Assembly: GCF_009617975.1 (NCBI RefSeq)
Contig: NZ_CP040089.1
Location: 180,001 to 212,000, forward strand
Source: Candidatus Nanohalobium constans
GTDB taxonomy: Archaea; Nanohalarchaeota; Nanosalinia; Nanosalinales; Nanosalinaceae
Direction of reading: 5' to 3'
DNA length: 32,000 nucleotides
Positions 2,738 through 24,094 of the stretch are shown here, in pieces (the first letter of the stretch is position 1; the number at the start of each line of letters is the position of its first letter). The translations under genes and the position numbers were made by a program. The notes beneath the pieces were generated by a model. It had not been told where the DNA came from. It was given only the letters and a program-made list of their open reading frames with translations, and ran no database searches.

Positions 2738-2764
2738 AAGACTCCAGCAACAATTCTCAACTAC

Positions 2765-7247: not shown

Positions 7248-8792
7248 GCTCTCAGCTACTGCGATACACGTGTCTATAATTTCTTCCGGGTTATTTACTT
7301 GTAGTCTGCCGGTATATTGCTCTCTGTGCATCTTTACAAAGAACTCTGCCAGTTTTTCGATCTCTTCTCCTTCATCAGTTGGCATTTCTCCAGCTAACTC
7401 CTTGTAAGTCAACTCTCTTTCAATACCTAGCTTTTGTTCAAGGAACCCCTTCATGATATGAGCAGTCTTGACAGATGCTTCTTCATCACCCAGCTCTCTG
7501 TATTCGTCTAGGATTTCTTCTAGTTTCTCCACACTTAATCCTTTAGAACTGCTTTCCTCTTCATTGCTGGAGTGTTTGAGTTTATCTCTCAAGTTTTCCT
7601 TCAGGTCTTCAAGCTTCTCCTTGGCGCTTTCTCCTTCTTTTTCTTCGCTGGACTCTTCCTCTCCTCGGACAGCACCCATCAACATTTCTAGGTCTTCCTC
7701 AGCCTCTTCACGCATTTCTTCATGCTCTTCCTGGCTCTCATCCTTACTTTCCAGACTGTTAGCAAGTTTTTCAAGGTCTGATGTGCTAGCCTCTCTCAGA
7801 TCTTCTTCATCCATCCCATTTTCTTCTAACCTTTCAATTAAGCTTTCACGGTGTTCTTTCTCCGATTTAATCTCCTCAAGCTGCTCTAGAGAAAAATCCT
7901 CTAATTCTTCGTCGCTCATATCTAACTCGAGATCTTCAGAAATCCTCTTTTTCCTTTCAAACTTGGAGTCCTCATCTTCATCTTTATTTTCGTCCCCTGG
8001 CTTACTATCCTCGCCACTCTCATTCCTAGGTTCCTCTTCAGGCTCTGAGTTCTCTTCCCCATTTTTCTCTCCTTCATTTTCTTGCTCTAAACTGTCTTCA
8101 CTTTCTTCTCTGTCTTCATCTTGGCTCCTATTTCCTGTCTCCTTATCTTCTTCCGATTCTTCAACAGACACCTCAGAATTTTCGTCATCTCTATCGTCCT
8201 CTTTATCATCTTCTGTTTTGGAAACATCTGTTTCGTCTTTCCTTATCTCTTCAAGATCATTTTCAAGGCTTTCTACATCCTTTCTAGCTTTCTTTACATC
8301 CTCCCCTACTTCTCTTTTTTTAATCTGTCGTTTAAGAAATTGTTTAGCTGTTTTGCGGTCTTTTATTCTTTCTTCTGCATCTAGCACATTTTCGAGTTGT
8401 TCTGAGGTTAACGGGTTTTCTTTGACAAATTCTTTCATTTCATCTACTGTCCCCCCTATTAGATCTATCAGATTATCCTGATCGATCTCTATTTTCTCTT
8501 CATCTAAATGTTCTATGTCCTCTACCCTCTCAATTTCACTGATCAAGTTTTCAACCTGTCCCATGTCTCTTTCTGCCAGGTTAAGATAGTTGCCAACATT
8601 CTCCGCGTTAAGTTGATCGTCTAAGAAGTTTATAAGTTCTTCACGGTTCTTACCAGATAGTTCAGCCTCCTTCAAGGCTTTAAGATCCTGAACTGTCAGG
8701 TCAATGCTCTTTACCTCTTCCCTAAAATATTCGCTATCGCTGGTTGTTAGTTCAGAAATTTTCCCTATAGACAGGTTGTCCAAACTGGTCAT
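7239..8792 (-). CDS. Extremely acidic Glu/Asp/Lys/Ser-rich low-complexity protein with structured N- and C-terminal ends (hypothetical)
   Basis: 517 aa with a long central tract such as EESEEDKETGNRSQDEDREESEDSLEQENEGEKNGEENSEPEEEPRNESGEDSKPGDENKDEDED. The ends are non-repetitive. A TATA-like TATTTAAG (minus strand, plus coordinates 8811-8818) lies just upstream of the ATG at 8792. The 3' end overlaps the convergent gene by 9 nt. Confidence 0.7.
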   Translation of the reverse strand: MTSLDNLSIGKISELTTSDSEYFREEVKSIDLTVQDLKALKEAELSGKNREELINFLDDQLNAENVGNYLNLAERDMGQVENLISEIERVEDIEHLDEEKIEIDQDNLIDLIGGTVDEMKEFVKENPLTSEQLENVLDAEERIKDRKTAKQFLKRQIKKREVGEDVKKARKDVESLENDLEEIRKDETDVSKTEDDKEDDRDDENSEVSVEESEEDKETGNRSQDEDREESEDSLEQENEGEKNGEENSEPEEEPRNESGEDSKPGDENKDEDEDSKFERKKRISEDLELDMSDEELEDFSLEQLEEIKSEKEHRESLIERLEENGMDEEDLREASTSDLEKLANSLESKDESQEEHEEMREEAEEDLEMLMGAVRGEEESSEEKEGESAKEKLEDLKENLRDKLKHSSNEEESSSKGLSVEKLEEILDEYRELGDEEASVKTAHIMKGFLEQKLGIERELTYKELAGEMPTDEGEEIEKLAEFFVKMHREQYTGRLQVNNPEEIIDTCIAVAESLS

Positions 8793-8823: not shown

Positions 8824-9777
8824 TTAGGGGATAACCTGCAAGTCCGTAGTTCTGAAAACAGCCTCTATAACAAGTAAGCCACCGGCTAACAGGAAGAACC
8901 AGGTTGAAATATCGTTCCTGCTCTTCTTCTCTTCCAACTCAATGAATGCATCCTGCAGACCCTGCCTGTTTGACACGAATACAGCCTCTCCGCCTGTTGA
9001 ATTCGATAAATTGTTCAGACCATCTCGGTTCAGATTAGGAAATTCCATTCGAGAAGCGTTGTTACCCTGGATAATTCCGAAATCATCCTGAGTGTTATTT
9101 GAGCTACCTCCGATCCCAATAGCATTTACTGTGGTATTCTGTCGCTGGGCATAATTTGCTGATTCATTCAAACTTTGACCCACTGTGTTACGACCATCGG
9201 TAATCAGTATCACAGTTCCAGGCTTTTCGTTGCCTGTCAGCATCGTAACCCCAGCCGCTACAGCGTCGCCTGTCGCAGTTCCGCCTCTTCCTCCTATACT
9301 GGTCTGGCTTATACTATTTCTTAAGGCTGAATGCTCGTTGGTTAACTCCTGCTCCTCATTTACACTTCCAGCATAGGAGATCAGACCTACTTGTGAACTG
9401 TTGCCCAGCTGTGAAACAAAGTCTTTTGAAACATCTTTGGCAGCCTGAAAACGATTAGGTTCAATATCCGATGTGAACATGGAGGCGGATGAATCCAGAA
9501 CCAGCACAAAGTCTGAATCAGATCCCATTACCTCCTGAACAAGTACAGGGCTCGATAAACCAATCAGTAAAGCGGTCACAGCTAAAATTCTTGTAATCAA
9601 AATCAGGTCATCCGAACGCAGGAAGTTTCCACCCGCCACCTTCTTCAAAGTCTCGTAGTTTCCAAATTGCATCACTCTCTCACGCTTCTTCTTACGTCCG
9701 TATAAAAACATTAATACTAGCAGACCATTCAGTAACAGTAGTAAACCAGCGTATTCTGCGGTAAAAGATAGCTTCAC
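8824..9777 (-). CDS. BatA-like von Willebrand factor A (VWA) membrane protein
   Basis: The GTG start overlaps the DUF58 stop (GTGA at 9774-9777). Two N-terminal TM helices and a MIDAS motif (LVLDSSASM) are present. The downstream VWA core is ILITDGRNTVG and NAIGIG. A C-terminal TM follows (WFFLLAGGLLVIEAVF). Confidence 0.85.
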   Translation of the reverse strand: MKLSFTAEYAGLLLLLNGLLVLMFLYGRKKKRERVMQFGNYETLKKVAGGNFLRSDDLILITRILAVTALLIGLSSPVLVQEVMGSDSDFVLVLDSSASMFTSDIEPNRFQAAKDVSKDFVSQLGNSSQVGLISYAGSVNEEQELTNEHSALRNSISQTSIGGRGGTATGDAVAAGVTMLTGNEKPGTVILITDGRNTVGQSLNESANYAQRQNTTVNAIGIGGSSNNTQDDFGIIQGNNASRMEFPNLNRDGLNNLSNSTGGEAVFVSNRQGLQDAFIELEEKKSRNDISTWFFLLAGGLLVIEAVFRTTDLQVIP

Positions 9778-10670
9778 CAGTCCTCACCTGCCTCATCGAA
9801 GTATTTAGCGAACTTGGCTGAGAACTGGTCACGTGTATCAATCTTTATGATTGAGGCGCCGGCACCTTCAACCTTGTTAACAATCCTTTCCTCTCGTTTC
9901 TGAGCCTCCTCATTATACTCTTCTTTGACCTTGGACGTGTTGACGACTAATTGTTCTCCTGTAGAGATATCTCCAAAACGCATGTTCCCATTATCCGGGA
10001 GTTTGTAGTCCCTCAAGTCCTTCACCATCACATTCATGACATGCCGGAACTTTTTCGAAGCAACAAGCATCTTAGACTTCCAGTCCCCCTTGGGTCTGAT
10101 AAAGTCAGATATAATAAATACAGAAGTATTTTCCTTAATCTGTCCAATTATGCTGTTTAAAGCATGCTCAAGGTTAAAATCGCCGCCATAATTTCCGAAA
10201 TCAGCCACCTCATGAAGAATCCTCTGGTACTGTGCATTACCGCCTCCTGGAGCAATATACAGCTCGTCCTCTCCAAAAAGACCGAAGCCAACATCAATAC
10301 CGGCATCAGTAGAAGCGTAAGCGATAGCAGCAGCAACAACTGCTGCGTACTCTGACTTCATCTTGTCTGTAGTACCGAACATCATGGAGTTGGACGCATC
10401 CAGAGCGATGAATACGTCCATGTCCTTTTCCTCCTCGTACTCCTTGACGAAAAGGTCTTCTGACTTGGCCGAGTTCTTCCAGTCGATTCTTGATGCGTCG
10501 TCACTGGTATTGTACTGTCTTAGGTCGGAGAACTCGATGCCCGAAGCCTGGAACTGCTCCTTGTACTTCAACGCGAATCGAAACGTATCGGCGACTCGCT
10601 TAACCTCGGAGTCCACCTCTGCAACGACATCGTCAGTCTCGAAGAAATCCTCCTCACGCATCTCAGTCAT
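9774..10670 (-). CDS. DUF58 family protein (VWA-like, canonical MoxR partner)
   Basis: Motifs GIEFSDLRQYNTSDDASRIDWKNSAK and VFIALDASNSMMFG are typical of DUF58. Its position between a MoxR ATPase and a BatA-like VWA gene supports the call. Confidence 0.85.
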   Translation of the reverse strand: MTEMREEDFFETDDVVAEVDSEVKRVADTFRFALKYKEQFQASGIEFSDLRQYNTSDDASRIDWKNSAKSEDLFVKEYEEEKDMDVFIALDASNSMMFGTTDKMKSEYAAVVAAAIAYASTDAGIDVGFGLFGEDELYIAPGGGNAQYQRILHEVADFGNYGGDFNLEHALNSIIGQIKENTSVFIISDFIRPKGDWKSKMLVASKKFRHVMNVMVKDLRDYKLPDNGNMRFGDISTGEQLVVNTSKVKEEYNEEAQKREERIVNKVEGAGASIIKIDTRDQFSAKFAKYFDEAGEDW

Positions 10671-10687
10671 ACAATTAGAAGATAGGA

Positions 10688-10704
10688 AACTCTGGAATAA
10701 AAAA
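10688..10704 (-). promoter_or_regulatory. TATA-containing 17-nt element upstream of DUF58 (copy 2 of a repeat also found upstream of MoxR)
   Basis: The plus strand reads aactctggaataaaaaa (minus strand TTTTTTATTCCAGAGTT). It lies 18-34 nt upstream of the DUF58 ATG (10670) and is identical to 12400-12416. Confidence 0.55.
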
Positions 10705-10709
10705 TCAAG

Positions 10710-11093
10710 CTACTTGTTCCTGAAGTTCTTGTTCTCAGTATCAATGTCTTCGTAGAATTCATCTGAACTCAGTATAGGCATTCCTTCTGACAGTGCTGCG
10801 TGAAAGGCGTCAAATATTGTCGAGTTCTTCTCATCTATGTAGAACATCGCCTGTAGGACTGTCTCTTCATCAGTATACATTAAATCACAGAAGCTCAGTA
10901 TATCTCTAACAAGAGGTGCGAAATTTTCTATATCGTAATCTCTATCAAGAATCATTACAACCTCGGCTAAGGCCAATATAGAAGTCTCTATATCTCCTCT
11001 GTTTTCTTCCAAGACTTCCATAGCGCTTTCCTTCAGCCAATCTTCATCCTTTATGACTGCTAGGATAAAATCTGAGTCGGCGTAAATAACTAC
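10710..11093 (-). CDS. vapC: PIN-domain toxin (VapC-like); no canonical start codon in the open frame
   Basis: The track ORF starts at an internal Met (11021). The frame stays open upstream to 11093 and encodes VVIYADSDFILAVIKDEDWLKESA, which supplies the first PIN acidic residue. The other PIN signatures are IETSILALAEVV and FDAFHAALSEGMPILSSDEFY. Between the in-frame TGA (11096-11094) and the first Asp there are only GTA GTT ATT TAC GCC. Confidence 0.7.
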   Translation of the reverse strand, partial: VVIYADSDFILAVIKDEDWLKESAMEVLEENRGDIETSILALAEVVMILDRDYDIENFAPLVRDILSFCDLMYTDEETVLQAMFYIDEKNSTIFDAFHAALSEGMPILSSDEFYEDIDTENKNFRNK

Positions 11094-11326
11094 TCACCTG
11101 CCTGTTCCTTCAAGGCTTCACGAGCCTCTTCTTGAAGTTCTTTAGCACTTCTGTCGTCCTCTCTAACACTCTTAGTTCTCTCCCTTAAATCTTCTATCGG
11201 ATCCTCAGGTATAGGTATAAGCCGGATAGAACCTTCAAATCTAACAATACGATATTCCTTCTCATCCTTTCTATATTCTTTTGGGATGACGATTCTACCT
11301 CTAGAGTCCATTTCAACTTTAGCCAT
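11090..11326 (-). CDS. vapB: AbrB/SpoVT-type antitoxin (VapB-like)
   Basis: MAKVEMDSRGRIVIPKEYRKDEKEYRIVRFEGSIRLIPI is a SpoVT-AbrB swapped-hairpin motif, followed by an acidic and basic C-terminal tail. I prefer the ATG at 11326 to the GTG at 11377. The stop overlaps the start region of the PIN ORF. Confidence 0.75.
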   Translation of the reverse strand: MAKVEMDSRGRIVIPKEYRKDEKEYRIVRFEGSIRLIPIPEDPIEDLRERTKSVREDDRSAKELQEEAREALKEQAGE

Positions 11327-11377
11327 TTTTATCCCACATTGTTTATTTGGTTCCCAAGAATTAAATTTCTTTCCCAC

Positions 11378-12385
11378 TTACCTAACCGGGACACGATTCA
11401 CGATGTTCTCAATGATGTCCTCAACCTCGATTCCCTGAGCCTCTCCCTCGTAGTTAAGCATGATTCTATGGACGAAAACCTCCTCGATAATATCTCTGAT
11501 GTCCTCAGGAGTCACGTAATGCCTGCCCTGATAAAGCGCTTGAGCTCTTCCAGCCAAAGCCAGGTTAATAGAAGCTCTCGGTGTACAGCCCCATTCAATA
11601 TAATCGGCGTACTCCATGCCATAGTCAGCAGGGTTTCTGGATGCATCGACCAGGTCAACGATGTATTCCTTGATTTCCGGTCGTACAACAACCTGTTTGG
11701 AGAATGCCTGAAGATTCTTCACTTCCTCTCTCGAGACAACAGCCGAAACATCAAAGTCATCGTCATCCATGATATTGGCGTTCATATCGATGATCTTCTG
11801 CTCATTCTTCTTCTTAGGATAGTCTAAATAGATCTTGAAAAGAAATCTGTCGATCTGAGCCTCTGGGAGCGGATAAGTTCCTCCCTGCTCGACCGGGTTC
11901 TGCGTAGCCATAGTGAAGAACGGTTCTGGCAGATGGAAGGTTTCATCTCCGATAGATACTTTGTGCTCCTGCATAGCCTCAAGCATAGCACTTTGAACTT
12001 TTGGCGGTGCACGGTTGATTTCGTCGGCTAGGATGAAGTTAGCGAAAATCGGTCCTTTCTCAACGTAGAAACCTTTGTCATCGTTGTAAGCCTCTACGCC
12101 GACGATGTCGGAAGGTAGTTTGTCCGGCGTGAACTGGATACGATTGAACTCTGTGTTCTCAACAACTCTTCCAAGCTGTTCGACCAGAAGACTTTTTCCC
12201 AGTCCTGGTACGCCTTCAAGCAAAATGTTTCCTCCGGCGGCAACTGTAAGTAGTATCTTGTTGATGACCTCTTCCTGTCCAATGTAACCCTTCTGAATCT
12301 CACTCTCCATCCTGTGCATTATCTCCTTGAAATGCTCGGCCTTCTCCTCCATCTCTGACTCGGAAAGATCATCATACTTTGCCAT
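11378..12385 (-). CDS. moxR: MoxR-family AAA+ ATPase
   Basis: Walker A LLEGVPGLGKS, Walker B ILADEINRAPPKVQSAMLEAMQE, and a sensor region TQNPVEQGGTYPLPEAQIDRF. I prefer the ATG at 12385 (MAKYDDLSE...) to the TTG at 12451, because a TATA-like box lies about 26 nt upstream of 12385. Confidence 0.9.
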   Translation of the reverse strand: MAKYDDLSESEMEEKAEHFKEIMHRMESEIQKGYIGQEEVINKILLTVAAGGNILLEGVPGLGKSLLVEQLGRVVENTEFNRIQFTPDKLPSDIVGVEAYNDDKGFYVEKGPIFANFILADEINRAPPKVQSAMLEAMQEHKVSIGDETFHLPEPFFTMATQNPVEQGGTYPLPEAQIDRFLFKIYLDYPKKKNEQKIIDMNANIMDDDDFDVSAVVSREEVKNLQAFSKQVVVRPEIKEYIVDLVDASRNPADYGMEYADYIEWGCTPRASINLALAGRAQALYQGRHYVTPEDIRDIIEEVFVHRIMLNYEGEAQGIEVEDIIENIVNRVPVR

Positions 12386-12399
12386 AAAGAATACTCGTG

Positions 12400-12416
12400 A
12401 ACTCTGGAATAAAAAA
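12400..12416 (-). promoter_or_regulatory. TATA-containing 17-nt element upstream of MoxR (copy 1)
   Basis: The plus strand reads aactctggaataaaaaa, 15-31 nt upstream of the MoxR ATG (12385). It is an exact copy of 10688-10704. Confidence 0.55.
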
Positions 12417-12477
12417 CTACGATCAACCAAAGATTTAATACTTTGGTGCAACTATAGAATACTAGGGTGAAATAATT

Positions 12478-12711: not shown

Positions 12712-13017
12712 ATGCAGCTTGAAGTAACCGAAGAAGCCGAAGAAGACCTGGAAGCTCTGGAAAAAGATATCAAAGATAGAATTATAGATGAGCTGGAAAA
12801 ACTTCAGAAAAATGCAACACCTGAAAAATCAACCTATATACAAATCGGCGACATGGACTTATTCCGTTTGAAACTGCAAAAAGAAGATAGAAATTCCAGA
12901 TTAAATCACAGAATCTTTTACCAGATAAAAGACAGCAAGATATACATCAGAGGAATCTTCCACAGACAGAAAGGCTACGGTACAGAAACAAGGCAAGAAC
13001 TGGAAGACAGAATCTAA
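12712..13017 (+). CDS. RelE/ParE-superfamily toxin
   Basis: About 100 aa. FRLKLQKEDRNSRLNHRIFYQIKDSKIYIRGIFHRQKGY fits the RelE/ParE C-terminal beta sheet pattern (yR.r.g..Ri.Y.i....i.i..i.hR). It sits immediately downstream of an RHH gene. Confidence 0.7.
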   Translation: MQLEVTEEAEEDLEALEKDIKDRIIDELEKLQKNATPEKSTYIQIGDMDLFRLKLQKEDRNSRLNHRIFYQIKDSKIYIRGIFHRQKGYGTETRQELEDRI

Positions 13018-14906: not shown

Positions 14907-16010
14907 ATGAAGCTAAGACTCATCCTATTAATTTTATCTGGTTTAATGTTCTCAACTCTTGCTGCAGGGAATTCCGTAGGCGCATTACCAGGTACTATTG
15001 ATTTTGGCACAGTTAATCCAGGAGAAACAGTTACACAAGAAATTTATATTAGAGGAACAAATGTGCCTGAAAATTTTTCAATAAGACCTAGTGCAAACAG
15101 TGTTGACGCCTCAACACTCTTTTCGGGAGATGCTGAAGACAAAAGAGAAATATCTGAGCAAAGTGCGGAGGACTGGTGGAATTTTGAAAGGAGCCTTGTA
15201 AACCCTGAAACTGAAGTAGATTATTCAGAGGTCAATGTTCAGAATCCGCCTACGCTGCATGGATCTACAACTGCTACCTTGGAAATACCTAATGATGCAG
15301 AACCAGGAGTGCGATATGGTCATATTCGCTTAAACCCTGACTTTTCTCCTCTTAACCAAAGCAGCGGTTCAGGAGCAAAAATTGTATCTCCTACTCGTTT
15401 AACTTACTCGTTTAGAGTATCTGGAACTGTAAGAAGAGATATAGAGGTGCAGGATGTAAGAGGGTTTAGATTGGACGAAGATGAAGCTGCTGTCGAGGTA
15501 CTCCTTGTGAATGAAGGTACTGTTACGACATCTACAGAGAATCTTAGATTAGATATACTTGATTCGAGCAGGGATGAAGAGACAACCTTGACTGCTTCAG
15601 GAACTTCGCTTGCTCCGGGAGAATCACAATGGGTGGAGGCAAACTGGGCAGATAACTCTGGAATTGAACAGGGAGAATACCAAGTAGGAGGGCAGGTAGA
15701 CTATTTGACTGGGAGCGCTACTGCCTCAGGAGACTTCTCGCTGCCAGATTTTGATGTTGTTGAGGTTAGACCAGAGGATAGTCCTGGAAGCGACAATCAA
15801 GATGGGGGCAGTGTTCCAATCTGGTTCGTAATTATTGTACTGGTTATTCTCGGTGTTTTGATGTGGGGCTTTGAGATTGAGCCTTTCTGGATAGTCACCA
15901 TTTTGGGAGTTCTCGGTATTTCGGCGTTTGTTTTGTTGAGTGGTTTGCCGAATTACTTGTTGGTAGTATTATTAATCATGGTTGGTATCGTTATCTATGG
16001 AGGAATGTAA
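14907..16010 (+). CDS. Exported protein with two Ig-like (CARDB/NEW3-like) modules and three C-terminal TM helices
   Basis: Signal peptide MKLRLILLILSGLMFSTLAAG. The first module is GTIDFGTVNPGETVTQEIYIRG ... LEIPNDAEPGVRYGHIRL. The second is VEVLLVNEGTVTTSTENLRLDIL ... APGESQWVEANW ... GEYQVGGQVDY. The C-terminus is IWFVIIVLVILGVLMWGF, FWIVTILGVLGISAFVLL and LLVVLLIMVGIVIYG. Confidence 0.75.
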   Translation: MKLRLILLILSGLMFSTLAAGNSVGALPGTIDFGTVNPGETVTQEIYIRGTNVPENFSIRPSANSVDASTLFSGDAEDKREISEQSAEDWWNFERSLVNPETEVDYSEVNVQNPPTLHGSTTATLEIPNDAEPGVRYGHIRLNPDFSPLNQSSGSGAKIVSPTRLTYSFRVSGTVRRDIEVQDVRGFRLDEDEAAVEVLLVNEGTVTTSTENLRLDILDSSRDEETTLTASGTSLAPGESQWVEANWADNSGIEQGEYQVGGQVDYLTGSATASGDFSLPDFDVVEVRPEDSPGSDNQDGGSVPIWFVIIVLVILGVLMWGFEIEPFWIVTILGVLGISAFVLLSGLPNYLLVVLLIMVGIVIYGGM

Positions 16011-16013
16011 AAC

Positions 16014-16508
16014 ATGGAACTGCCTGAGTTAGACGAGTTGAAACAGCTGGATAGAAAGAAAATCTTGTTGGGAACAACAGCCTTAATCTTGGTGCTTCTA
16101 GCAGCAGGTGCGGTTTATGCATATTCTCAGGTTGATGTAAATAATAAGGATGCATCTTTCAGCACTAATGCTACCATTCTTGATTCTAATGAGTCGGAGA
16201 ATTTGACGGCTGGTCTTGCTATGGGTCAGGGCATGAGTTTTGGAAAGTTTTCCTCCAATTTTAACAAGACCAAGTCCTTGAATCTTTCAGCAGATAGCTT
16301 GACTCTTGCCGAGGTAGAGGTCGAAGGCAATATCTCGGATAGACTGGATTACGAGGAGAGACATCTCTTTGAGGGAAGGACTCAGATTCCTTTCGAGTTA
16401 CACGGTAATCAGTCTGGATTCTTTGAAGGTGAGATAAATCTTGAATTGAAAACCGCCCAGAACAAGTGGGGAGAGAAATGGCTAAACTTCCAGTACAACT
16501 ACTTCTAA
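16014..16508 (+). CDS. Small exported or N-terminally anchored protein with a TasA/camelysin-like N-terminal signature (tentative)
   Basis: An SD-like GGAGGA lies 12 nt upstream, inside the end of the preceding gene. The N-terminus RKKILLGTTALILVLLAAGAVYAYSQVDVNNKDASFSTNATILD resembles SipW-type signal peptides and the following TasA-family block. The C-terminus EINLELKTAQNKWG resembles the family's last strand. This comparison is from memory only. Confidence 0.65.
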   Translation: MELPELDELKQLDRKKILLGTTALILVLLAAGAVYAYSQVDVNNKDASFSTNATILDSNESENLTAGLAMGQGMSFGKFSSNFNKTKSLNLSADSLTLAEVEVEGNISDRLDYEERHLFEGRTQIPFELHGNQSGFFEGEINLELKTAQNKWGEKWLNFQYNYF

Positions 16509-17293
16509 TCCTTTTTATTCTTCCCGCAGTTGCTGGATTAAATTTTGATGTAGATGTCTCAGCAATTACCGACCACTCTGTCAAGGATATAGAATATGGT
16601 GAGGATATTTCCGGAACTCAGGGAATCAACGCCACTGTAGAAAACGTCGGCAGCATCGGCTGCACCTACAGAATGAAGGCTGATTTCCAACAGGGAAATG
16701 AAAGCTTTGAACGATTTTCTTCTCCAGAGCCGCTGTGGCAGGGAGACTACGAGAGATTGGAGATAAAATACATTCCAACAAACTACACTGGCAAAATTGA
16801 AACTAATCTCTCTCTGCAGTACTGCGACCAAGAAAAACAGATAGACTCTTTCAACTTCAACGTAACAGAAAACACCACAATCAACTCCACAGTCGACTCC
16901 AGAACAGTTTCCTCAAATCATGAAAGTTCAAAGATAGAAATAAAGGGAGATACGCTTATTCCACAGGAAGAGCCAAGTTACTGGAAAACCAGTTCAGCAC
17001 AGATAATTAACGGAACAGCAGAGATAGAGTACGACGCCCCGATCTTCGACAGACAAGAAGAAATAACCTATACAGTCATAGAAGACGGAGAGATAATAGG
17101 CAGCACTACCGTAGGATTTAAACCAGAACCAACACTGAAGGAGAAAATCATCGACAAGAAACTAGAGGTACTGACAGGGCTTCTTACTGCTTCAATACTT
17201 TTCAATATCCTCCTAGTGCTCAAACAAAAAGGTATTTTAGCCAGGCTTCAAAGCCTCGAATACCAACTCCCCGACTTCAAAAAACAAGACTAA
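16478..17293 (+). CDS. Exported Ig-like protein with a C-terminal TM anchor (hypothetical)
   Basis: I prefer the ATG at 16478 (MAKLPVQLLLILFILPAVAG), which is preceded by GGGGAGAG. It overlaps the upstream gene by 31 nt. A CARDB-like motif is present (INATVENVGSIGCTYRMKADF). The anchor is LTGLLTASILFNILLVL, followed by KQK. Confidence 0.7.
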   Translation: MAKLPVQLLLILFILPAVAGLNFDVDVSAITDHSVKDIEYGEDISGTQGINATVENVGSIGCTYRMKADFQQGNESFERFSSPEPLWQGDYERLEIKYIPTNYTGKIETNLSLQYCDQEKQIDSFNFNVTENTTINSTVDSRTVSSNHESSKIEIKGDTLIPQEEPSYWKTSSAQIINGTAEIEYDAPIFDRQEEITYTVIEDGEIIGSTTVGFKPEPTLKEKIIDKKLEVLTGLLTASILFNILLVLKQKGILARLQSLEYQLPDFKKQD

Positions 17294-17346: not shown

Positions 17347-17354
17347 CTTTAAAG
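17347..17354 (+). promoter_or_regulatory. TATA-like box (CTTTAAAG) for the 894-aa gene
   Basis: It lies 26-33 nt upstream of the ATG at 17380 with no SD, matching the pattern at other first genes in the window. Confidence 0.45.
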
Positions 17355-17379: not shown

Positions 17380-20064
17380 ATGGCATCCAAGAAAACCATA
17401 CTGCTTCTAACACTTATCTTATTCACAGGAATTTCAGCTGCGCAGCCCAATAACATTACGGGTGAGGTCAAAGACGAGTTCTGGCTTAATCAGGATGATG
17501 CTATTCAAAGTTTCGGTGTAGAATTCGCCGGCCCATGTGAAAATACTGCTGTAGAAGTTTTCTCAAGTGAAGAGGAGGTAACTGATGTTGAGAATACAAG
17601 TGAGTCCGGGAATACCTATGAAATTGCTCCAAGCGATCTTTCCGGTCCTGCGAATTATACTATCGAAGCATCGTGCGAGAATGAAAATGTGAGTTCTGCT
17701 GAAACAAGTTTTCTTGCCGATAATATCCAACTCAGTGTAGGGAGTATTGATTCTAGTTCTGATGATCCTGTCTTCTACCCTGGTGATACTGTATCTGGGC
17801 AGCTCGACCTATCAACTGAGGGAAGTGTAATAGAATCTGTTCCAAGCTCTCTCGAATTTGATTCATCTTTTGAAAACGGTGTAAGTGTTAATCAAGAGTA
17901 CGACTTTCAGGTTGATGCTTCTTCGAGTGATACTGGTGAAAATTCAATAAGTTTGATAAATTATGAGACTTCTGCAGGAGATATCACTGTTGAACCTGTC
18001 TGGCAGGTAGAAAATAAGGTTGATGAGAAGGTTAAGCACAGGAATTTTCAGGATCTTTCTGTAACTTTCCAGATTACCAAGAAAGGAGATGCATACACCG
18101 GTTTTGAAGATGATGACTTTGAATTTGCCGGAGGTTCAGGCGATAACTTTGTTTCTGTAAGTACTGATGGCGACAGTTATACCCTTGACTTTGAATCTAC
18201 TCCAAAAGTTGATGATAGAGCCCCTACAGAGGAAACTTTTGAGTTAAGTGCTGATCCAAGAGAGCAAGATTTTGAAGAAGAATCTTTCAACATTGGTGAG
18301 ATAGAAATTGAAAAAGATATCGAGTTTTCAGGCGAGGTCCGTGACTTAGAGAGAAGCAGGGTTCCTGCTAAGTTCACAGCAGAGTTTGATAATCGAGATA
18401 CTGCTTTTGGGAACGGTGATTCTGCTTCATTTGAGAAGTTCTTCCCTGATGCAAAGGCTCCGATATTTGAGATGGATTTCCCAGAGGCAAAGTTTGAGCT
18501 TAAGAACTTTGAATTTGTCAGAGAGTATCCTGATGGTCAAGAAAGAGATATCAGATATAACTACTACGAAAAATTTGAGGGTATAGAGTTTGAGGGAGAT
18601 GCTTCAGATATTAGACCAGTAAATCTTGTCTCAATTGAATCTGATTATGACTTTGAGTCTGATCCTGATGAGAGTAGAGTGAACCTTGAATTTGATAGCA
18701 GTCAAGTTGAAGATACAAGAAATGTCGTAGTCTATGAGTGTGACTACTGGATGTTTGAAAGAGAAACATGTGCCAATGAATGGGAGGAGAAGGATGTCAG
18801 AACTCTTGGACAGGAGACTTTGAATGTGCAGATAAACCCTTATGATGAACAGTTTGGAGGAAATGCGAATGTTCTCTGGAATGCTTACTTGGTTGGTGTT
18901 CCTAAGGGTGTTGGTTCTAGTTTGACTCTTGAGAATAGTTTGGATGGTTTGCCTGGTAGGATTCAGGCTGGTGAGGAGTTTAGTATTTCAGGTACTGTGA
19001 TTGACAGTTCTACTGGTGAGGCTGTGGAGGATGCTGATGTTTCGATTGAGATTGTTTCTGGTGGTGGTAACAAGGTTACTCCTGACCAGGATATTGACAC
19101 AGGGGTGAATGGTAATTTTGAGTATTCGGATGTTGTGCGTGAGGCTGGCAGTTATTCGGCCAATATAGAGGTCTCTAAGAGTCCTTATGAGTCTTTTGTT
19201 TTTGAAGAAGAGAATGATGATAATGATAAGATGGAAGTGTATTATGAGACTGGTTTGACTGTCAGCAGTGAGGATGATGTCGATATTCGGTTCGGTGAGT
19301 CTTCCAGTGTGGAGTTTGATGTTGAGAATGTCGGTCAGTCGGAGGTTGAGGACCTGTCATTTGATACTGAAGTATCGGGTATCGATGAGGAATATTATAG
19401 TTGGAGTCTGCCAAGTAGAAGCAGTATTAGTGAGGAGGGTTCTGTAACTGCTACCTTGAACTTGGATATTCCTTCGGATGCTGATGTTGCTCCAGGTCGG
19501 AAGACTATTTCTCTATCTGCTTCCGGTAACTCTGCTGATGAGAGCTTGGATAACTCTGCTACTGTTTACGCATCTGTACCAGCTCAGCAAGAGGATGAAT
19601 CAGATCAGCAGGAGTCGGAGACGGAAGAACGGAATAACTCCGGTTCTTCGTTTGATGTTCCTGATGCCAAGGATGTTTCAAATGTGACCGGAGAGTTTAT
19701 TCAGAGTCAAAGTGATATGAACTTGGCTCTAGGGCTTATCCTGATTTTTGGAGCTATCCTGGCTGTGACGGTTAGGAAGAGGAAGAATGATGGTGATAGG
19801 GATGATAGGAGGATGGGTGGTCGTGCGACCACTGCATCACATGCCGGTGGCTCTGGTAGGGGCAAGGTTCAGAAGCCTGATGTCTCTCCTCAAGATAACC
19901 AGGAAGAAGATACTGAAGACGGAGAGGAGCAAGAATCAGTTGAAGAAGAAAGTGGTTCAGGTACGGGTTCAAACGATGAGGAGGGCGAGTTTGTCTGTGA
20001 TACTTGCGGAGATAAGTTTGACACGGAGTCCGGTTTGAAGCTTCACAAACAGGCGCTTCACTGA
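17380..20064 (+). CDS. Large adhesin-like type I membrane protein: signal peptide, acidic beta-rich ectodomain with CarboxypepD_reg-like and NEW3/CARDB-like modules, one TM, and a disordered cytoplasmic tail ending in a C2H2 zinc finger
   Basis: Signal peptide MASKKTILLLTLILFTGISAAQ. The CarboxypepD_reg-like module is FSISGTVIDSSTGEAVEDADVSIEIV...TGVNGNFEYSDVVREAGSYSANIEV. The NEW3-like module is VEFDVENVGQSEVEDLSFDTEV...PSDADVAPGRKTISLSA. The TM is LALGLILIFGAILAVTV, followed by RKRK. The tail ends FVCDTCGDKFDTESGLKLHKQALH. Confidence 0.8.
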   Translation: MASKKTILLLTLILFTGISAAQPNNITGEVKDEFWLNQDDAIQSFGVEFAGPCENTAVEVFSSEEEVTDVENTSESGNTYEIAPSDLSGPANYTIEASCENENVSSAETSFLADNIQLSVGSIDSSSDDPVFYPGDTVSGQLDLSTEGSVIESVPSSLEFDSSFENGVSVNQEYDFQVDASSSDTGENSISLINYETSAGDITVEPVWQVENKVDEKVKHRNFQDLSVTFQITKKGDAYTGFEDDDFEFAGGSGDNFVSVSTDGDSYTLDFESTPKVDDRAPTEETFELSADPREQDFEEESFNIGEIEIEKDIEFSGEVRDLERSRVPAKFTAEFDNRDTAFGNGDSASFEKFFPDAKAPIFEMDFPEAKFELKNFEFVREYPDGQERDIRYNYYEKFEGIEFEGDASDIRPVNLVSIESDYDFESDPDESRVNLEFDSSQVEDTRNVVVYECDYWMFERETCANEWEEKDVRTLGQETLNVQINPYDEQFGGNANVLWNAYLVGVPKGVGSSLTLENSLDGLPGRIQAGEEFSISGTVIDSSTGEAVEDADVSIEIVSGGGNKVTPDQDIDTGVNGNFEYSDVVREAGSYSANIEVSKSPYESFVFEEENDDNDKMEVYYETGLTVSSEDDVDIRFGESSSVEFDVENVGQSEVEDLSFDTEVSGIDEEYYSWSLPSRSSISEEGSVTATLNLDIPSDADVAPGRKTISLSASGNSADESLDNSATVYASVPAQQEDESDQQESETEERNNSGSSFDVPDAKDVSNVTGEFIQSQSDMNLALGLILIFGAILAVTVRKRKNDGDRDDRRMGGRATTASHAGGSGRGKVQKPDVSPQDNQEEDTEDGEEQESVEEESGSGTGSNDEEGEFVCDTCGDKFDTESGLKLHKQALH
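19990..20061 (+). other. Classical C2H2 zinc-finger motif at the extreme C-terminus of the 894-aa membrane protein
   Basis: F-V-C-DT-C-GDK-F-DTESG-L-KL-H-KQAL-H equals F-x-C-x2-C-x3-F-x5-L-x2-H-x4-H. Every consensus position of the TFIIIA-type finger is occupied, and the stop codon follows the last His directly. Confidence 0.75.
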
Positions 20065-20074: not shown

Positions 20075-20857
20075 TTATTTTGAGATATTTCTTTTTATAT
20101 TCCGGAGCCCTCTCTTGAATTTGGCGAACTTTGGTGGTTCGTATTTTCCGCCTTCTAGACTGGCTGCTAGTTTCTGTATTTCGATTGCTGCCTCGCTGTA
20201 CTCGTTGAAGAGCACGAGTGGTGTGTTTTCGAAAAGGCTTTCTTTCATTTCTGCGTCGTAAGGTATTTGTCCTAGGATGTGGCTTTCTGTCATCATTTCG
20301 ACTTCTCTTTCTACTAGTTCTTTGTCTGGTTCGTCTTCTACTTTGTTGATGACTGTACCTAGTATTGGTTGCTGCATTTCCTTGCATTTTTCGATTATCT
20401 GTGCTGCGTTGATTCCTGCTGTCTGTGTGGGCATTGTGACTATCATTAGTTCGTCGCAAGCGTCTATTATGCTTTCAACTGTCTTATTTAGTCCTGGTGG
20501 GCAGTCAACCAGTACGTAGTCCGATTCTTTGCTTGCTTCCGTAAGTATGTCTCTGAGGCTGGATGTTTCTGGTTCCACCTTGTTAATTTCGTTGCTTGAG
20601 GTCAATGCTTTGATCCCAGTCGGGTGTCTGAAGATAGCTGATTCTGTTTCTGCGTTTCCATGCAGTACGTCCTGTATTTTGACAGGGTGGTCGTATCGTC
20701 CTAGGTAAACTCCTAGGTTTGAAGCTGAGAAGTCGGCGTCGACTATAGTTACTTCTTTTTCTCTTTGTTGTAGTGCTATTCCCAGGTTTACTGTCAAAGT
20801 GGTTTTTCCTACTCCGCCTTTTCCTGAGATCAGACCTACTATTCTTCCATCTGCCAT
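20075..20857 (-). CDS. minD: MinD/ParA-family ATPase (archaeal MinD type)
   Basis: Deviant Walker A GLISGKGGVGKTTLTVNLG, Walker A' VTIVDADF and Walker B YVLVDCPPG. The basic amphipathic C-terminus PKFAKFKRGLRNIKRNI looks like a membrane-targeting helix. A TATA-like TTTATTAAAC (plus coordinates 20884-20893) lies about 30 nt upstream. Confidence 0.9.
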   Translation of the reverse strand: MADGRIVGLISGKGGVGKTTLTVNLGIALQQREKEVTIVDADFSASNLGVYLGRYDHPVKIQDVLHGNAETESAIFRHPTGIKALTSSNEINKVEPETSSLRDILTEASKESDYVLVDCPPGLNKTVESIIDACDELMIVTMPTQTAGINAAQIIEKCKEMQQPILGTVINKVEDEPDKELVEREVEMMTESHILGQIPYDAEMKESLFENTPLVLFNEYSEAAIEIQKLAASLEGGKYEPPKFAKFKRGLRNIKRNISK

Positions 20858-20961: not shown

Positions 20962-21378
20962 ATGTCAAGATTCTGGATTGGGGTTGGGGTAGTTTTTGTA
21001 ATTGGTTTGCTGACAATTTTTTCAGCTACCGGAAACACGAATGCGGTGTATGTAAACGATCTTGAAACTGAGTGTCGAGGAGATCGGGCTGAATCAACGA
21101 GTATCAGCTTGCAGCAGGATAACTCTATAAGATTTGAAGGATACTTTCCGGTAGAAAACACTAATTCTGACATGAGCTTCAATTACAACGGAGGAAGCAG
21201 CATGGTATTGAATGTTAAGTCTCAAAACCTGGCAGCGCCTGACTTCTTATGGTATGACTGCCTAGCATCCGGAGTGTATGATATTGAGACCTCGGAACTG
21301 AACGAAGGAAGATACTCTGTAGAAATTAAACACAATGGAGAAAGAGTAGAAAAAAGGATAATCAGGATTAAGAATTAA
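20962..21378 (+). CDS. N-terminally anchored small beta-rich protein (hypothetical)
   Basis: The anchor is FWIGVGVVFVIGLLTIFSA, and the ectodomain has 2 Cys. The stop shares a TTAA with the convergent ppsA stop (21375-21378). Confidence 0.55.
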   Translation: MSRFWIGVGVVFVIGLLTIFSATGNTNAVYVNDLETECRGDRAESTSISLQQDNSIRFEGYFPVENTNSDMSFNYNGGSSMVLNVKSQNLAAPDFLWYDCLASGVYDIETSELNEGRYSVEIKHNGERVEKRIIRIKN

Positions 21379-23921
21379 TCCAACTGGTACTTAGTTTCAC
21401 CATCCTTCTTAACCTCTACTTCTATCTTACCTTCCTTTGCTAGCCATCCAAGAGCCTGGTTAACTGTTTCACTATCCATAGCATCGTCAGCATGACTTTT
21501 CAGCTTCTTGGCAGTAGCTTTGCCCTGGTCATTCAAGATATTGTAGACTTCTCCGGCAGCATTACCAACATCATCAGGAGTCAAACCTGCAATATTCACA
21601 TCACTGAAATCACTGTTCTCCACTGAATCTCTTCCTTCCTCTGCATCAGCAACCTTCAAAATAGTCTCCAATGCGACATCTGGAGAAACAGAGATCGCAT
21701 CGATATTGTTCTCAACCAGGAACTCTGCGTAACCTTCATGGGTTGAAGGAGCGTCTCCACAGATGCCGACATGTCTATCCTTCTTGTGAGCCTTTCTAAT
21801 CAGTTTCCTGACTGATTCTTTCACTGCAGGATCCCTCTCATCGAATACTTCCTTCATCTTATCGCTGTTCCTGTCAACTCCAAGTGTTAACTGAGTTAAG
21901 TCGTTTGTCCCGACGGAGAAACCATCGAATACTTCAGCAAACTCTTCTGCACGGATAATGTTTGAAGGAATCTCTGCCATGACATACACATCGATATCTC
22001 CTTCATCCAGTCCATACTCCTTCATCTTTGCTCTGACCTTCTTGCCCTCGTCGATGGTACGGCAGAAAGGAACCATCACGGTGATATTGTCCAATCCTAG
22101 CTCATCGATACATCTGCGCAGTGCTTCACATTCCAGTTCGAATGCTTTCTGGAATACTTCGTCATAGTATCTTGAAGCTCCTCTGAATCCGATCATAGGG
22201 TTCGCTTCATCTGGCTCATAGTCTTCACCGCCTTCAAGCTGTGCATATTCGTCTGATTTGAAGTCGGAAAGTCGAACTACAACTTGGTCTGGATAGAATG
22301 CTGCCCCGATCTTACCTAGGCCGTCTCGGAGCGCCTGAACATATTCATCGTCTCTACCTTCTTCAATTAAGTGTAGCGGATGTTCTCCGACATGGCTGGA
22401 GATGATGAATTCTTCTCTTGCTAGTCCGACACCTTCAACGGGGAGCTGGGCTACATGGAATACTTCGCTTGGCTCTCCGATGTTGACTTGTACATCTGTA
22501 TCTGTATCTGGTATTTCATCCAGGTGGTGTTCTTCGACATTGAACTCTATTTCTCCATCCCAGATTCTGCCTGTGCTTGAAGAACAGTCTACAGTAACCT
22601 CTTGTCCATCGGATAACTGGCTTGTGGCGTTCTCCGTGCCGATGACTGCCGGTACTCCTAGTTCTCTGGATACGATTGCTGCGTGACTGGTTCGCCCGCC
22701 TTTATTGGTTATGATAGCTCCTGCTTTCTTCATAATTGGCTCCCAGTCTGGATCGGTCATGTCGGTTACCAGTACTTCTCCCTCTTCAAACTGGTCGATT
22801 TGCTTGGGCGATGAGAGGACATGTGCCTTCCCTGAGCCAATCTTGGAGCCAATTGCGCTCCCCTCAAGCAGTACCTCTGACTCTTCCTCGAGCTTGTAGT
22901 CTTTGATTACATTTTCGTCCTTCTCAGCCTGCACCGTCTCCGGTCTTGCCTGAACAATATACAGTTCGTTGGTCTGTCCGTCCAGAACCCACTCGATATC
23001 CATTGGCTTACCATAGTGTTCCTCAATCCGTAAGGCGTATTTAGCCAGTTCTTTTACCTGGTTGTCAGTTATACAGAATTTTTCCCGGTCGCTCTGAGGC
23101 ACTTTCTTCTCAATGTTTTCCTGTCCATCTCCGGATTCATGATCTTCGTTCCTAACCAGCTTCTTCTCCTTGTCGCCAACTTCTTTCTCAATTATTCCAA
23201 GATTCTCCTTAAACACAGTGAACTCGTCAGGATTGACTTCTCCGAGTACTACATACTCTCCTAGTCCGTAGCTTCCGTTGATTGTTACGACATTGTCGAA
23301 TCCGGAGTCTGGGTCCAGTGTAAACATTACTCCAGCCGCACCGATATCTGAACGCCCCATCTTCTGAACAACGGCTGATAACTTCACATCAAAGTGACTG
23401 AAATCTTTATCCTCACGATAAGAAATCGCTCTGTTTGTGAAAAGAGAAGCATAGCAATCCTTAATCCTCTTGATCAAGTCTTGCTTCCCAGAAACATTTA
23501 GATAAGTTTCCTGCTGTCCTGCGAAAGATGCTCCTGGAAGGTCCTCAGCTGTGGCAGATGAACGAACTGCTACTTCCGGGTTTTCTACTCCCAATCGTTC
23601 TTCTAGTTCTTCGTATTGTTTTACAAAGTCTTTTCTTAGATCCTCTGGCATGTCAGCTTCCTTGATATGAGCACGGATCTGCTTGCCTACTCGTTGTAGG
23701 CTGTTGACATCATCGATGTCTAATCCGTCGATTAGTGTCTCGATCTTGTCTCTCAGATCGGTGTCGTGTATAAATTTGTCGTATGCATCGGCAGTGGTCG
23801 CGAAACCAGGTAGAACAGGTACTTCGGTTTCGTTTCGGAGCTCTCCGAGATTTGCGCTTTTACCGCCTACTTTAGCGGTGTCGTCAGAGTTGATATCTTC
23901 GAACCAGAGGACATTCTTCAT
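21375..23921 (-). CDS. ppsA: Phosphoenolpyruvate synthase (pyruvate, water dikinase) with an additional C-terminal winged-helix (DUF2582-like) domain
   Basis: The N-terminus MKNVLWFEDINSDDTAKVGGKSANLGEL matches the PpsA start. The phospho-His motif is NKGGRTSHAAIVSRELGVPAVIG, and the PEP-utilising TIM-barrel motifs are GFSVGTNDLTQL and GICGD. I prefer the ATG at 23921 to 24047 because a TATA-like TTTTATATGG (plus coordinates 23942-23951) lies about 26 nt upstream. An extra roughly 85 aa follows the canonical end. Confidence 0.95.
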   Translation of the reverse strand: MKNVLWFEDINSDDTAKVGGKSANLGELRNETEVPVLPGFATTADAYDKFIHDTDLRDKIETLIDGLDIDDVNSLQRVGKQIRAHIKEADMPEDLRKDFVKQYEELEERLGVENPEVAVRSSATAEDLPGASFAGQQETYLNVSGKQDLIKRIKDCYASLFTNRAISYREDKDFSHFDVKLSAVVQKMGRSDIGAAGVMFTLDPDSGFDNVVTINGSYGLGEYVVLGEVNPDEFTVFKENLGIIEKEVGDKEKKLVRNEDHESGDGQENIEKKVPQSDREKFCITDNQVKELAKYALRIEEHYGKPMDIEWVLDGQTNELYIVQARPETVQAEKDENVIKDYKLEEESEVLLEGSAIGSKIGSGKAHVLSSPKQIDQFEEGEVLVTDMTDPDWEPIMKKAGAIITNKGGRTSHAAIVSRELGVPAVIGTENATSQLSDGQEVTVDCSSSTGRIWDGEIEFNVEEHHLDEIPDTDTDVQVNIGEPSEVFHVAQLPVEGVGLAREEFIISSHVGEHPLHLIEEGRDDEYVQALRDGLGKIGAAFYPDQVVVRLSDFKSDEYAQLEGGEDYEPDEANPMIGFRGASRYYDEVFQKAFELECEALRRCIDELGLDNITVMVPFCRTIDEGKKVRAKMKEYGLDEGDIDVYVMAEIPSNIIRAEEFAEVFDGFSVGTNDLTQLTLGVDRNSDKMKEVFDERDPAVKESVRKLIRKAHKKDRHVGICGDAPSTHEGYAEFLVENNIDAISVSPDVALETILKVADAEEGRDSVENSDFSDVNIAGLTPDDVGNAAGEVYNILNDQGKATAKKLKSHADDAMDSETVNQALGWLAKEGKIEVEVKKDGETKYQLD

Positions 23922-24094
23922 ACCAGAAAATTCTTCCAGCCGCCATATAAAACGGCCGTTATTATAGAAAGGTGGTACATTGTCTCTATCTGGAGATAGT
24001 TGAAAGTTTGAACTTTTCTTTAAACATTTGAAGATTTCTTTAATCACACTAACTTCTCCTGAAATAAAGGAGTAGAAGAGCTAAATTGAAAGAT

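Follow-up and report, generated by a model that had tools for sequence, protein, structure and literature searches.

A C2H2 zinc finger at the predicted cytoplasmic end of a nanohaloarchaeal surface protein encoded beside a MinD/ParA-type ATPase

The HubP/FimV landmark proteins of Gammaproteobacteria recruit ATPases of the ParA/MinD family (ParA1, ParC and FlhG). In these proteins an outer domain is followed by one transmembrane (TM) helix and a long acidic stretch in the cytoplasm, and the C terminus folds into a small interaction domain (PMC12918733). The same layout, with a single membrane pass and, on the cytoplasmic side, an acidic region that terminates in a small folded domain, recurs in an envelope protein, here termed protein D, encoded by a 32,000-nucleotide stretch of DNA from Candidatus Nanohalobium constans that was analysed at its full length (the window). 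Protein D is the 894-residue product of open reading frame (ORF) 17380..20064 on the + strand, and its last 24 residues form a genuine C2H2 zinc finger of the classical type, with a predicted beta-beta-alpha fold. D is not homologous to HubP/FimV: it is archaeal, has a chain of immunoglobulin (Ig)-like domains where they have LysM, ends in a C2H2 finger instead of the FimV TPR module, and gave no LysM or FimV match in Pfam or NCBIfam. Its proposed interaction with an ATPase is, unlike theirs, inferred from gene linkage alone; judged by layout, D is thus an analogue, not a member, of this group.

A second comparison is with the archaeal type IV pilus loci described by Makarova, Koonin and Albers (2016, PMC4858521). 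Besides a FleN/MinD ATPase (arCOG00589), these encode a pair of large DUF2341 'adhesins' and also S-layer-like proteins with one C-terminal TM helix and conserved cysteines, and genes for winged helix-turn-helix (wHTH) regulators and for vWA proteins are linked to them; zinc is not mentioned in that paper. D is likewise large and beta-rich, with one C-terminal TM anchor and conserved cysteines, and it keeps similar company, i.e. genes for a MinD/FleN-like ATPase, DUF2341 proteins, small wHTH proteins and vWA/MoxR proteins. By contrast, a pilus core (T2SSE and two T2SSF genes) lies beside the D cluster at only one of the loci compared below (L007), and a rough FlaFind-like scan of the window found no class III signal peptide, so the pilus link is a lead and not evidence of membership. 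Pilus core genes (VirB11/PilB-type ATPase, TadC/FlaJ-type protein) are not present in the window, although the remainder of the genome may encode them.

Two further archaeal comparisons concern zinc. In Haloferax volcanii, FtsZ1 is held by CdpC, in which a disordered linker connects a membrane anchor with a zinc-binding domain (bioRxiv 10.64898/2026.07.16.738847) and which, like D, has kept its domain layout despite rapid sequence change; by contrast with D, CdpC is peripheral, attached by an amphipathic helix, lacks an ectodomain, and has C3H and C4 zinc ribbons. The haloarchaeal C(P)XCG micro-proteins, e.g. HVO_2753 and HVO_0758, share with D a halophilic archaeal origin, a short zinc-binding module and a C-x2-C-G signature; however, they are stand-alone proteins of <70 residues with two C(P)XCG motifs, four cysteines and zinc-ribbon-like folds, whereas D has one C-x2-C-G plus H-x4-H in a beta-beta-alpha C2H2 module fused to an 870-residue membrane protein. 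Literature searches found no membrane-anchored C2H2 finger in archaea. The initial annotation, made from the sequence of the window, was not aware of any C2H2 finger on the inner end of an adhesin-like protein, and this stands, there being no description or annotation that we could find: the sources consulted have either no name or 'hypothetical protein', and the precomputed Pfam assignments on close homologues comprise only PF13620.

The architecture of D given in the initial annotation, with a TM helix, RKRK, a linker of ~70 residues and a terminal finger whose last His is followed by the stop codon, holds in every part within ORF 17380..20064. The features, in the order signal peptide, all-beta ectodomain, one TM helix, RKRK, acidic linker and terminal finger, are as follows.

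17380..17445, + strand: signal peptide, residues 1-22, MASKKTILLLTLILFTGISAAQP / MASKKTILLLTLILFTGISAAQ (sequence)
17446..19599, + strand: ectodomain, a chain of beta-sandwich (Ig/macroglobulin (MG)-like) domains, residues 23-740 (AlphaFold2 (AF2) model)
19600..19713, + strand: acidic disordered stalk and juxtamembrane motif TGxFxxSQSxxN, residues 741-778 (AF2, alignment)
19714..19773, + strand: single TM helix, residues 779-798 (AF2 helix 779-798)
19774..19785, + strand: RKRK positive-inside cluster, residues 799-802 (sequence)
19786..19983, + strand: disordered, mostly acidic cytoplasmic linker, residues 803-868 (AF2, predicted local distance difference test score (pLDDT) 34-41)
19861..19890, + strand: linker motif G-K-V-Q-K-P-D-V-S-P, residues 828-837 (alignment)
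19990..20061, + strand: C2H2 finger FVCDTCGDKFDTESGLKLHKQALH, residues 871-894 (sequence, Pfam, AF2, alignment)
20062-20064, + strand: stop codon TGA, directly after the finger

The feature had been taken to begin at 19741, which falls inside the TM helix, the finger itself starting at 19990; similarly, the TM stretch first proposed, LALGLILIFGAILAVTV, corresponds to residues 782-798. The description of D as 'giant', with an ectodomain of ~780 residues, was overstated, the acidic and fast-evolving ectodomain having ~756 residues including the stalk. An AF2 model of the whole of D (63-row alignment) has a mean pLDDT of 79, with an all-beta ectodomain mostly above 85 and a stalk below 50 (disordered over residues 739-779). 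Foldseek comparison of the model with the Protein Data Bank (PDB) returned generic multi-Ig/MG matches only, at a TM-score of ~0.15, and gave no S-layer or adhesin assignment. The signal peptide is modelled as a helix (residues 7-15) at low pLDDT, and close homologues all share its K4, K5 and L8-L10 run.

A cytoplasmic finger, on a type I membrane protein, is predicted from the signal peptide, the K/R cluster after the TM helix (in line with the positive-inside rule), and the placement of sequons and cysteines. Six N-x-S/T sequons lie in the ectodomain plus stalk, four of them within residues 23-740, and the tail linker has none; the ectodomain has four cysteines (C53, C99, C454 and C464) and the linker, again, none. 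Across the 63 aligned family sequences C454 and C464 never vary, nor do C53 and C99 among the three closest homologues. The RKRK positions are occupied by K in 41-50 of the 63 homologues and by R in most others. An archaeosortase anchor of the PGF-CTERM/PEF-CTERM type was considered and rejected, because 96 residues including a folded domain follow the TM helix, and there is neither a PGF motif nor an NCBIfam match.

The finger, F871-V-C873-D-T-C876-G-D-K-F880-D-T-E-S-G-L886-K-L-H889-K-Q-A-L-H894, matches F-x-C-x2-C-x3-F-x5-L-x2-H-x4-H exactly, as first read from the translation, so that both the ligand pattern and the hydrophobic core of a classical C2H2 finger are present. Among window ORFs of at least 70 residues, C-x2-C-x12-H-x3-5-H occurs only here. 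Pfam zf-C2H2 (PF00096) aligns over its full length (1-23/23), with a score that falls short of the gathering threshold of 25.2 bits, i.e. 11.9 bits for whole D, rising to 15.4 when only the tail and to 19.5 when only the finger is scored. Single C2H2 fingers often score below the Pfam gathering cutoff. When family fingers were scanned individually, 38 of 46 matched zf-C2H2 at E<=0.1, the best at 2.9e-7. Likewise, when the last 37 residues of D were compared with the PDB by phmmer, only classical C2H2 proteins were found (e.g. PRDM9, SALL4 and ZBTB38), and a search with the finger profile found only classical C2H2 chains, the DNA-binding fingers among them including PRDM9, ZNF568 and SALL4. In the AF2 model of D the tail, whose modelling had been suggested as a check, has a beta-beta-alpha finger (strands 871-872 and 879-880, helix 883-893; pLDDT 88-91).

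In its C-x2-C-x12-H-x4-H spacing, F...F...L core, predicted fold and best PDB sequence matches, the finger of D is therefore of the classical TFIIIA/Krueppel type. It is unlike these, by contrast, in being a single finger at the extreme C terminus of a type I membrane protein, after an acidic disordered leash, in having T, S, G and L at the contact positions, in scoring (for the window copy) below the Pfam cutoff, and in having a sister group that lacks two or three of the ligands. An intermolecular zinc site like the Rad50 hook was rejected, because those matches reflect CxxC alone.

The sub-threshold Pfam score of the window copy is the one observation that would suit a fortuitous match in a low-complexity tail, a reading that can be practically dismissed. 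Over 2000 shuffles of the 11,127 residues of window ORFs, the expectation per shuffle was 0.001 for a loose motif and 0 for the strict one; other family members reach an E value of 2.9e-7, the model is confident (pLDDT 88-91), and the motif is terminal in 49 of 63 representatives that are only 22-44% identical overall to D. Since the finger is conserved among such divergent family members, chance is rejected, and the finger is considered homologous and under selection.

The extent of that conservation was established at several levels. A word-indexed search found two homologues of D at 34-36% identity, and a genome scan found four D loci in nanohaloarchaeal metagenome-assembled genomes; all six of these homologues terminate in [FVN][VA]CDxCGExFDT[ED]SG[LM]xLH[KRE][QD]ALH, and their stop codons follow within 0-1 residue. 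When 1.84 billion cluster representatives were searched with a profile, 354 relatives were identified, 81 of them with E <1e-30; from these the close family is defined here as 63 full-length representatives 22-44% identical to the window protein. The four ligands are all kept in 49 of these, 0-3 residues from the C terminus (11 in one case), so that orthologues do keep the finger, the main point on which the initial annotation would have fallen; the claim is qualified by twelve ligand-poor members, which have C-x2-T and no second His, and the remaining two are one C2H1 and one otherwise different. Individual finger positions are kept in 62 (C873), 63 (G877), 63 (F880), 57 (H889), 50 (C876) and 50 (H894) of the 63 sequences. 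Identity to D in this alignment is 54% for the finger and 52% for the juxtamembrane region plus TM helix, against 21% for the ectodomain and 22% for the linker. Within the juxtamembrane motif T770, G771, F773, Q777 and S778 are kept in 51-62 of 63 sequences, and the TM helix is unusually conserved, polar N781 and G785 included.

The linker (20 D/E versus 11 K/R over residues 799-868) is otherwise unconserved, with one conserved island, of family consensus R-x-V-Q-K-P-x-V-S-P, in which P833 is kept in 57, V835 in 45 and R827 in 46 of 63 sequences, and P64 is invariant in alignment A4. This island may be a second docking site.

The ligand-poor form, (F/Y)VCEETGExFDTKxALx(L/M)(H/Y)(K/R)x(I/M)N(G/D)h, e.g. 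FVCEETGEEFDTKAALKLHRQINGLDN, occurs in twelve of the 63 representatives (P0016, P0017, P0019, P0024, P0025, P0028, P0031, P0038, P0056, P0061, P0065 and P0072), in several fragments, and at loci L010 and L011. Its second Cys is replaced by Thr, the last His is absent and the first His is sometimes Tyr, so that two or three ligands are lost. On a neighbour-joining tree of ectodomains eight of its bearers fall into one clade and the others into at least two smaller groups, and these three or more positions suggest, from sequence comparison, recurrent loss or exchange of tails. An AF2 model of one such protein (P0089; alignment of ligand-poor members only) again has a beta-beta-alpha finger (pLDDT 81-87), implying that the module persists without a complete zinc site. 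The surface most conserved across both forms is G-E-x-F-D-T-x-x-(A/G)-L, which corresponds to the hairpin tip and the first turns of the helix.

More distantly, a profile of remote homologues matched nine proteins without names, and a profile of the 125-residue TM-tail-finger region matched five proteins (word index), including P0153. The latter, a soluble acidic metagenomic protein of 272 residues, has four C2H2 fingers with the same CxxCGEEF(D/R)(T/N) flavour, so that stand-alone multi-finger relatives of the module also occur in halophilic archaea. The charge of the finger tracks that of the surrounding tail by lineage, being acidic in nanohaloarchaea and basic in the distant group.

Gene linkage is the chief new finding. 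D is the fourth of four same-strand envelope-protein genes in the window, and the gene that faces it encodes a MinD/ParA-family ATPase; across loci these genes make up a conserved cluster, A-B-C-MinD-D, which often lies close to genes for DUF2341 proteins.

14874-14880, + strand: TATA-like TTTAAAA upstream of A (sequence)
14907..16010, + strand: protein A, 367 residues, first gene of the cluster; signal peptide, beta domains, ~3 C-terminal TM helices
16014..16508, + strand: protein B, 164 residues; short charged cytoplasmic N terminus, one TM helix, small outer domain
16466..17293, + strand: protein C, 275 residues; signal peptide, beta domain, C-terminal TM helix, 23-residue tail
17347..17354, + strand: TATA-box-like CTTTAAAG, 26-33 nt upstream of the D ATG (sequence)
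20075..20857, - strand: MinD/ParA-family ATPase, 260 residues, convergent with D (Pfam ParA, E 1.4e-24)

TATA-like boxes thus precede the ATGs of both A and D by 26-33 nt, a proximity that suggests leaderless transcripts; going by general archaeal promoter architecture, D may be transcribed from a promoter of its own, as an mRNA without a leader. The four envelope proteins of the window are colinear homologues of genes at L005 and L007 (BLAST): those of A are found with E 1.5e-25 and 2e-18, respectively, those of B occupy the same position at both loci, and C has a homologue at the same position in L007 and one 65% identical in L001. A weak choice-of-anchor D match on A is the sole hit for proteins A-D in NCBIfam, PADLOC or PHROGs, and a defence-system or viral origin of A-D was rejected on these otherwise empty results. 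Among the four, no cytoplasmic part other than the tail of D is predicted to be both sizeable and folded.

The window ATPase scores 189 bits with NCBIfam minD_arch, under the cutoff of 201.75, and has a deviant Walker A motif (GKGGVGKT) and a basic amphipathic C terminus, KFKRGLRNIKR (hydrophobic moment, muH, 1.02). All of the ATPases at D loci have the deviant Walker A motif GKGGxGKT and a basic amphipathic C terminus, the latter being the membrane-binding signature of MinD-like members of the ParA/MinD group (PMC11407121). Considering 16 distinct loci, i.e. the window, L001-L004, L005/L006 (one locus) and L007-L016, such an ATPase gene directly adjoins that of D in 15, ranging from Nanohaloarchaeota to Aenigmatarchaeota-like genomes. 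It is convergent with D in the window, L001-L004, L009, L010 and L012 (L010 and L012 also being nanohaloarchaeal, and one of the two ligand-poor), and directly upstream, co-oriented and abutting or overlapping the start of D at seven distant loci (L005/L006, L007, L008 and L013-L016). The convergent stop codons are 10 nt apart in the window, and the 3' ends overlap by 4 nt in L009 (17234..17237) and L012 (8796..8799), leaving hardly any room for separate terminators. At L001-L004, where the gene order is as in the window, housekeeping neighbours are 73-88% identical and D only 35-43%.

The more distant loci add detail. That of P0120, an 809-residue protein with a basic C2H2 tail, runs 337, 172 and 255 residues, ParA (overlapping the start of D), D, DUF2341 (1775 residues), 271 residues and a second, convergent ParA; that of P0100 (L007) runs 314, 169 and 256 residues, a 73-residue wHTH protein, ParA, D, a second ParA, T2SSE and two T2SSF. 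ParA lies immediately upstream and co-oriented at the loci of P0090, P0131 (annotated Ca. Aenigmatarchaeota), P0094, P0110 and P0116. DUF2341 genes are adjacent to, near or fused to D in L005, L007, L008, L009 and L014. The fusion is in Ca. Nanosalina (L009), where a 3078-residue DUF2341 protein terminates in a last-Ig, TM, tail and finger module homologous to that of D, and its gene overlaps by 4 nt a convergent ParA gene whose product is 66% identical to the window ATPase.

Of the functions that the initial annotation had offered for the finger, the tethering of a partner protein fits best, a candidate partner being adjacent at 15 of 16 loci. It is tentatively proposed that the tail of D is a cytoplasmic docking knob coupling a surface complex to the adjacent MinD/ParA-type ATPase, because of the analogy with known systems and because the tail is the sole folded cytoplasmic element of A-D. 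In such a mechanism the finger would hang in the cytoplasm beneath the TM helix of D on its disordered acidic leash of ~70 residues, and would act as a protein-docking knob, possibly jointly with the linker motif R-x-VQKPxVSP. It would thereby couple the envelope complex to the membrane-binding ATPase encoded alongside, which may position, cluster or license the assembly of the surface apparatus, possibly a type-IV-pilus-associated or host-contact structure. A contact between tail and ATPase, and a role in positioning, are what gene linkage and analogy would suggest. Through partner proteins, ATPases of the ParA/MinD type set the positions of flagella, archaella, chemoreceptor arrays and secretion or pilus machines (PMC11407121), and archaeal MinD4 and MinD2 are reported to position motility machinery. 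Also counted in favour of docking is the Nanosalina giant, whose finger module still directly adjoins MinD although it is attached to another type of ectodomain.

Several observations weigh against this proposal. One nanohaloarchaeal, ligand-poor locus, L011, has no adjacent MinD gene. A 138-residue gene and a phosphoenolpyruvate (PEP) synthase gene are also conserved neighbours in nanohaloarchaea, and the D-MinD adjacency there could in part be inherited synteny. Most of the distant homologues of D are fingerless yet retain the MinD neighbour, and carry instead a juxtamembrane amphipathic motif, R-E-D-I-K-N-L-L-L-D-I-K-R-E-I; the ATPase may therefore contact the tail elsewhere, or else B or C by their short cytoplasmic ends, with the finger binding something else. 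Finally, C2H2 fingers are best known as binders of nucleic acids. The possibility that the helix of the finger is a remodelled form of the amphipathic motif was rejected, since P0113 and P0120 have both, in series.

The same fingerless homologues, with their MinD neighbour and a different conserved tail helix, are consistent with an alternative in which the finger docks some other partner, e.g. FtsZ/SepF, a pilus-platform ATPase, a cytoskeletal protein or its own copy, or serves simply as a folded end piece that keeps the tail stable or its topology fixed, MinD acting via other segments. The binding of FtsZ1 by a zinc-binding domain on a disordered leash in haloarchaeal CdpC, the presence of T2SSE and two T2SSF just downstream in L007, and the highly conserved TM helix, whose polar N781 suggests that intramembrane contacts hold the complex together, point the same way. 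However, no alternative partner is consistently encoded nearby and, as noted, the module stays flush with MinD when its ectodomain differs; another partner or a capping role is therefore possible but rather doubtful.

That the finger tethers chromosomal DNA or RNA to the surface complex or host-contact site, perhaps with a wHTH-tailed membrane protein and small wHTH proteins, would accord with the canonical role of C2H2 fingers, with the PRDM9, ZNF568 and SALL4 matches, and with the very basic finger versions of non-halophiles. Another type I protein of the window has a DUF7343 wHTH domain on its cytoplasmic side, and small wHTH genes lie beside the ParA or finger genes in L007, L008 and L009. 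By contrast, D has a single finger with 5 acidic versus 3 basic residues, no basic flank and ~40 residues of poly-D/E before it, and T, S, G and L at helix positions -1, +2, +3 and +6, which usually contact bases; in 12 of 63 family members, moreover, two or three zinc ligands are lost while the FDT-x-x-A-L surface is kept. Since finger charge follows that of the tail by lineage, the basic versions count for little, and the small wHTH proteins are more simply explained as operon regulators, wHTH regulators having been linked to FleN/MinD genes (PMC4858521). Nucleic-acid tethering, one of the functions first suggested, is thus disfavoured and considered unlikely. A more elaborate version, in which the finger, with the DUF7343 protein and small wHTH proteins possibly contributing, tethers the symbiont chromosome or its RNAs to a MinD-positioned, pilus-associated complex at the site of host contact, is a long shot; were it true, it would constitute a direct transmembrane link from host attachment to the genome, relevant to chromosome anchoring and segregation in a reduced-genome cell or to nucleic-acid exchange with the host.

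The DUF7343 protein (906..1811, - strand), the 'membrane-tethered wHTH' of the initial annotation, has 301 residues, with a signal peptide, beta ectodomain, one TM helix, RRKN and the C-terminal wHTH (E 1.4e-19), and is the second surface protein of the window with a putative DNA-binding cytoplasmic tail; a 295-residue DUF7343 gene is also found near the finger-bearing giant of L009. The small wHTH proteins (69-75 residues) are encoded directly upstream of ParA or of a finger-bearing DUF2341 gene (L007 7026..7247, L008 7026..7247, L009 7777..8004 and L008 2802..3207), and could be operon regulators or ParB-like adaptors.

The type I topology with a cytoplasmic putative DNA-binding domain, the parallel of the wHTH-tailed protein, and a conserved TM helix containing helix-destabilising N781, G785 and G791 speak for a further possibility, raised in the initial annotation as release by intramembrane proteolysis, that regulated proteolysis of this kind frees the tail and finger as a signal or transcription factor upon host engagement, in the manner of Notch or SREBP. 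Beyond the topology and the conserved, Gly/Asn-rich helix nothing positive was found for such release. Genes for site-2, rhomboid, signal-peptide-peptidase-type or other intramembrane proteases were not found in the window or the 16 loci, and the conserved partner gene encodes an ATPase, not a protease. The product, a single finger on an acidic tail, would be a poor transcription factor, and fingerless homologues retain the same TM helix. Proteolytic release is accordingly regarded as highly improbable, and docking to the adjacent ATPase is retained as the working proposal.

Other genes of the window, and some at related loci, are recorded for completeness. At L007, 10434..15052 continues the cluster with the second ParA, then a CxxC protein of 96 residues, T2SSE (a PilB-type ATPase) and two TadC-like T2SSF proteins, in a tadZ-tadA-tadB-tadC-like order beside the A-B-C-MinD-D genes. 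The PEP synthase/pyruvate-water dikinase of the window (21375..24047, - strand; 890 residues) has a C-terminal DUF2582 winged helix (residues 825-880, E 8.9e-14); the same fusion occurs in L010, and L012 has a separate 56-residue DUF2582 gene at the corresponding place. A second surface-protein cluster (2300..7247, + strand) encodes proteins of 145, 587, 221 and 686 residues: the first has a homologue beside the Nanosalina giant (L009), the second (2765..4528) is homologous to the C-terminal 490 residues of a 1775-residue DUF2341 protein in L005 (E 1.6e-34), and the last has NEW3/CARDB domains. On the - strand, 8824..12451 encodes a MoxR AAA+ ATPase, DUF58 and VWA/BatA proteins, i.e. a Bat-like aerotolerance-type operon, with a PIN-domain ORF (10710..11021) inside this set and a ParE-toxin-like ORF at 12712..13017. 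Between these clusters, 7239..8792 (- strand) encodes an extremely acidic, Glu/Asp/Ser-rich protein of 517 residues, apparently coiled-coil or disordered and without a Pfam match, whose Ser-rich antisense shadow is ORF 7468..8481.

DPANN archaea such as the nanohaloarchaea live attached to a host cell, and how they build and place their contact or surface apparatus is largely unknown, hence the value of the D cluster. Ca. Nanohalobium constans is a cultivated nanohaloarchaeon, an ectosymbiont of Halomicrobium; strain LC1Nh has one chromosome of 973,463 bp and 43.2% G+C (PMC7443923), the window being ~43% G+C. The five-gene cluster, comprising four envelope proteins and a MinD-type ATPase, is common to nanohaloarchaea and more distant small-genome archaea, at least one of which is annotated as Aenigmatarchaeota. 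Within it the tail of D carries a conserved, unannotated C2H2 module that several lineages of small-genome archaea share and that gene linkage ties to the MinD-type ATPase. It adds a membrane-anchored, probably protein-binding context for the classical C2H2 finger in archaea, for which the retrieved zinc-finger literature concerns small stand-alone C(P)XCG proteins. With four zinc ligands in 24 residues, it offers a mutable cytoplasmic handle on the largest component of the cluster, and a natural ligand-poor variant is available for comparison. The positioning of an envelope apparatus from inside the cell thereby becomes experimentally approachable in cultivated Ca. Nanohalobium constans with its Halomicrobium host.

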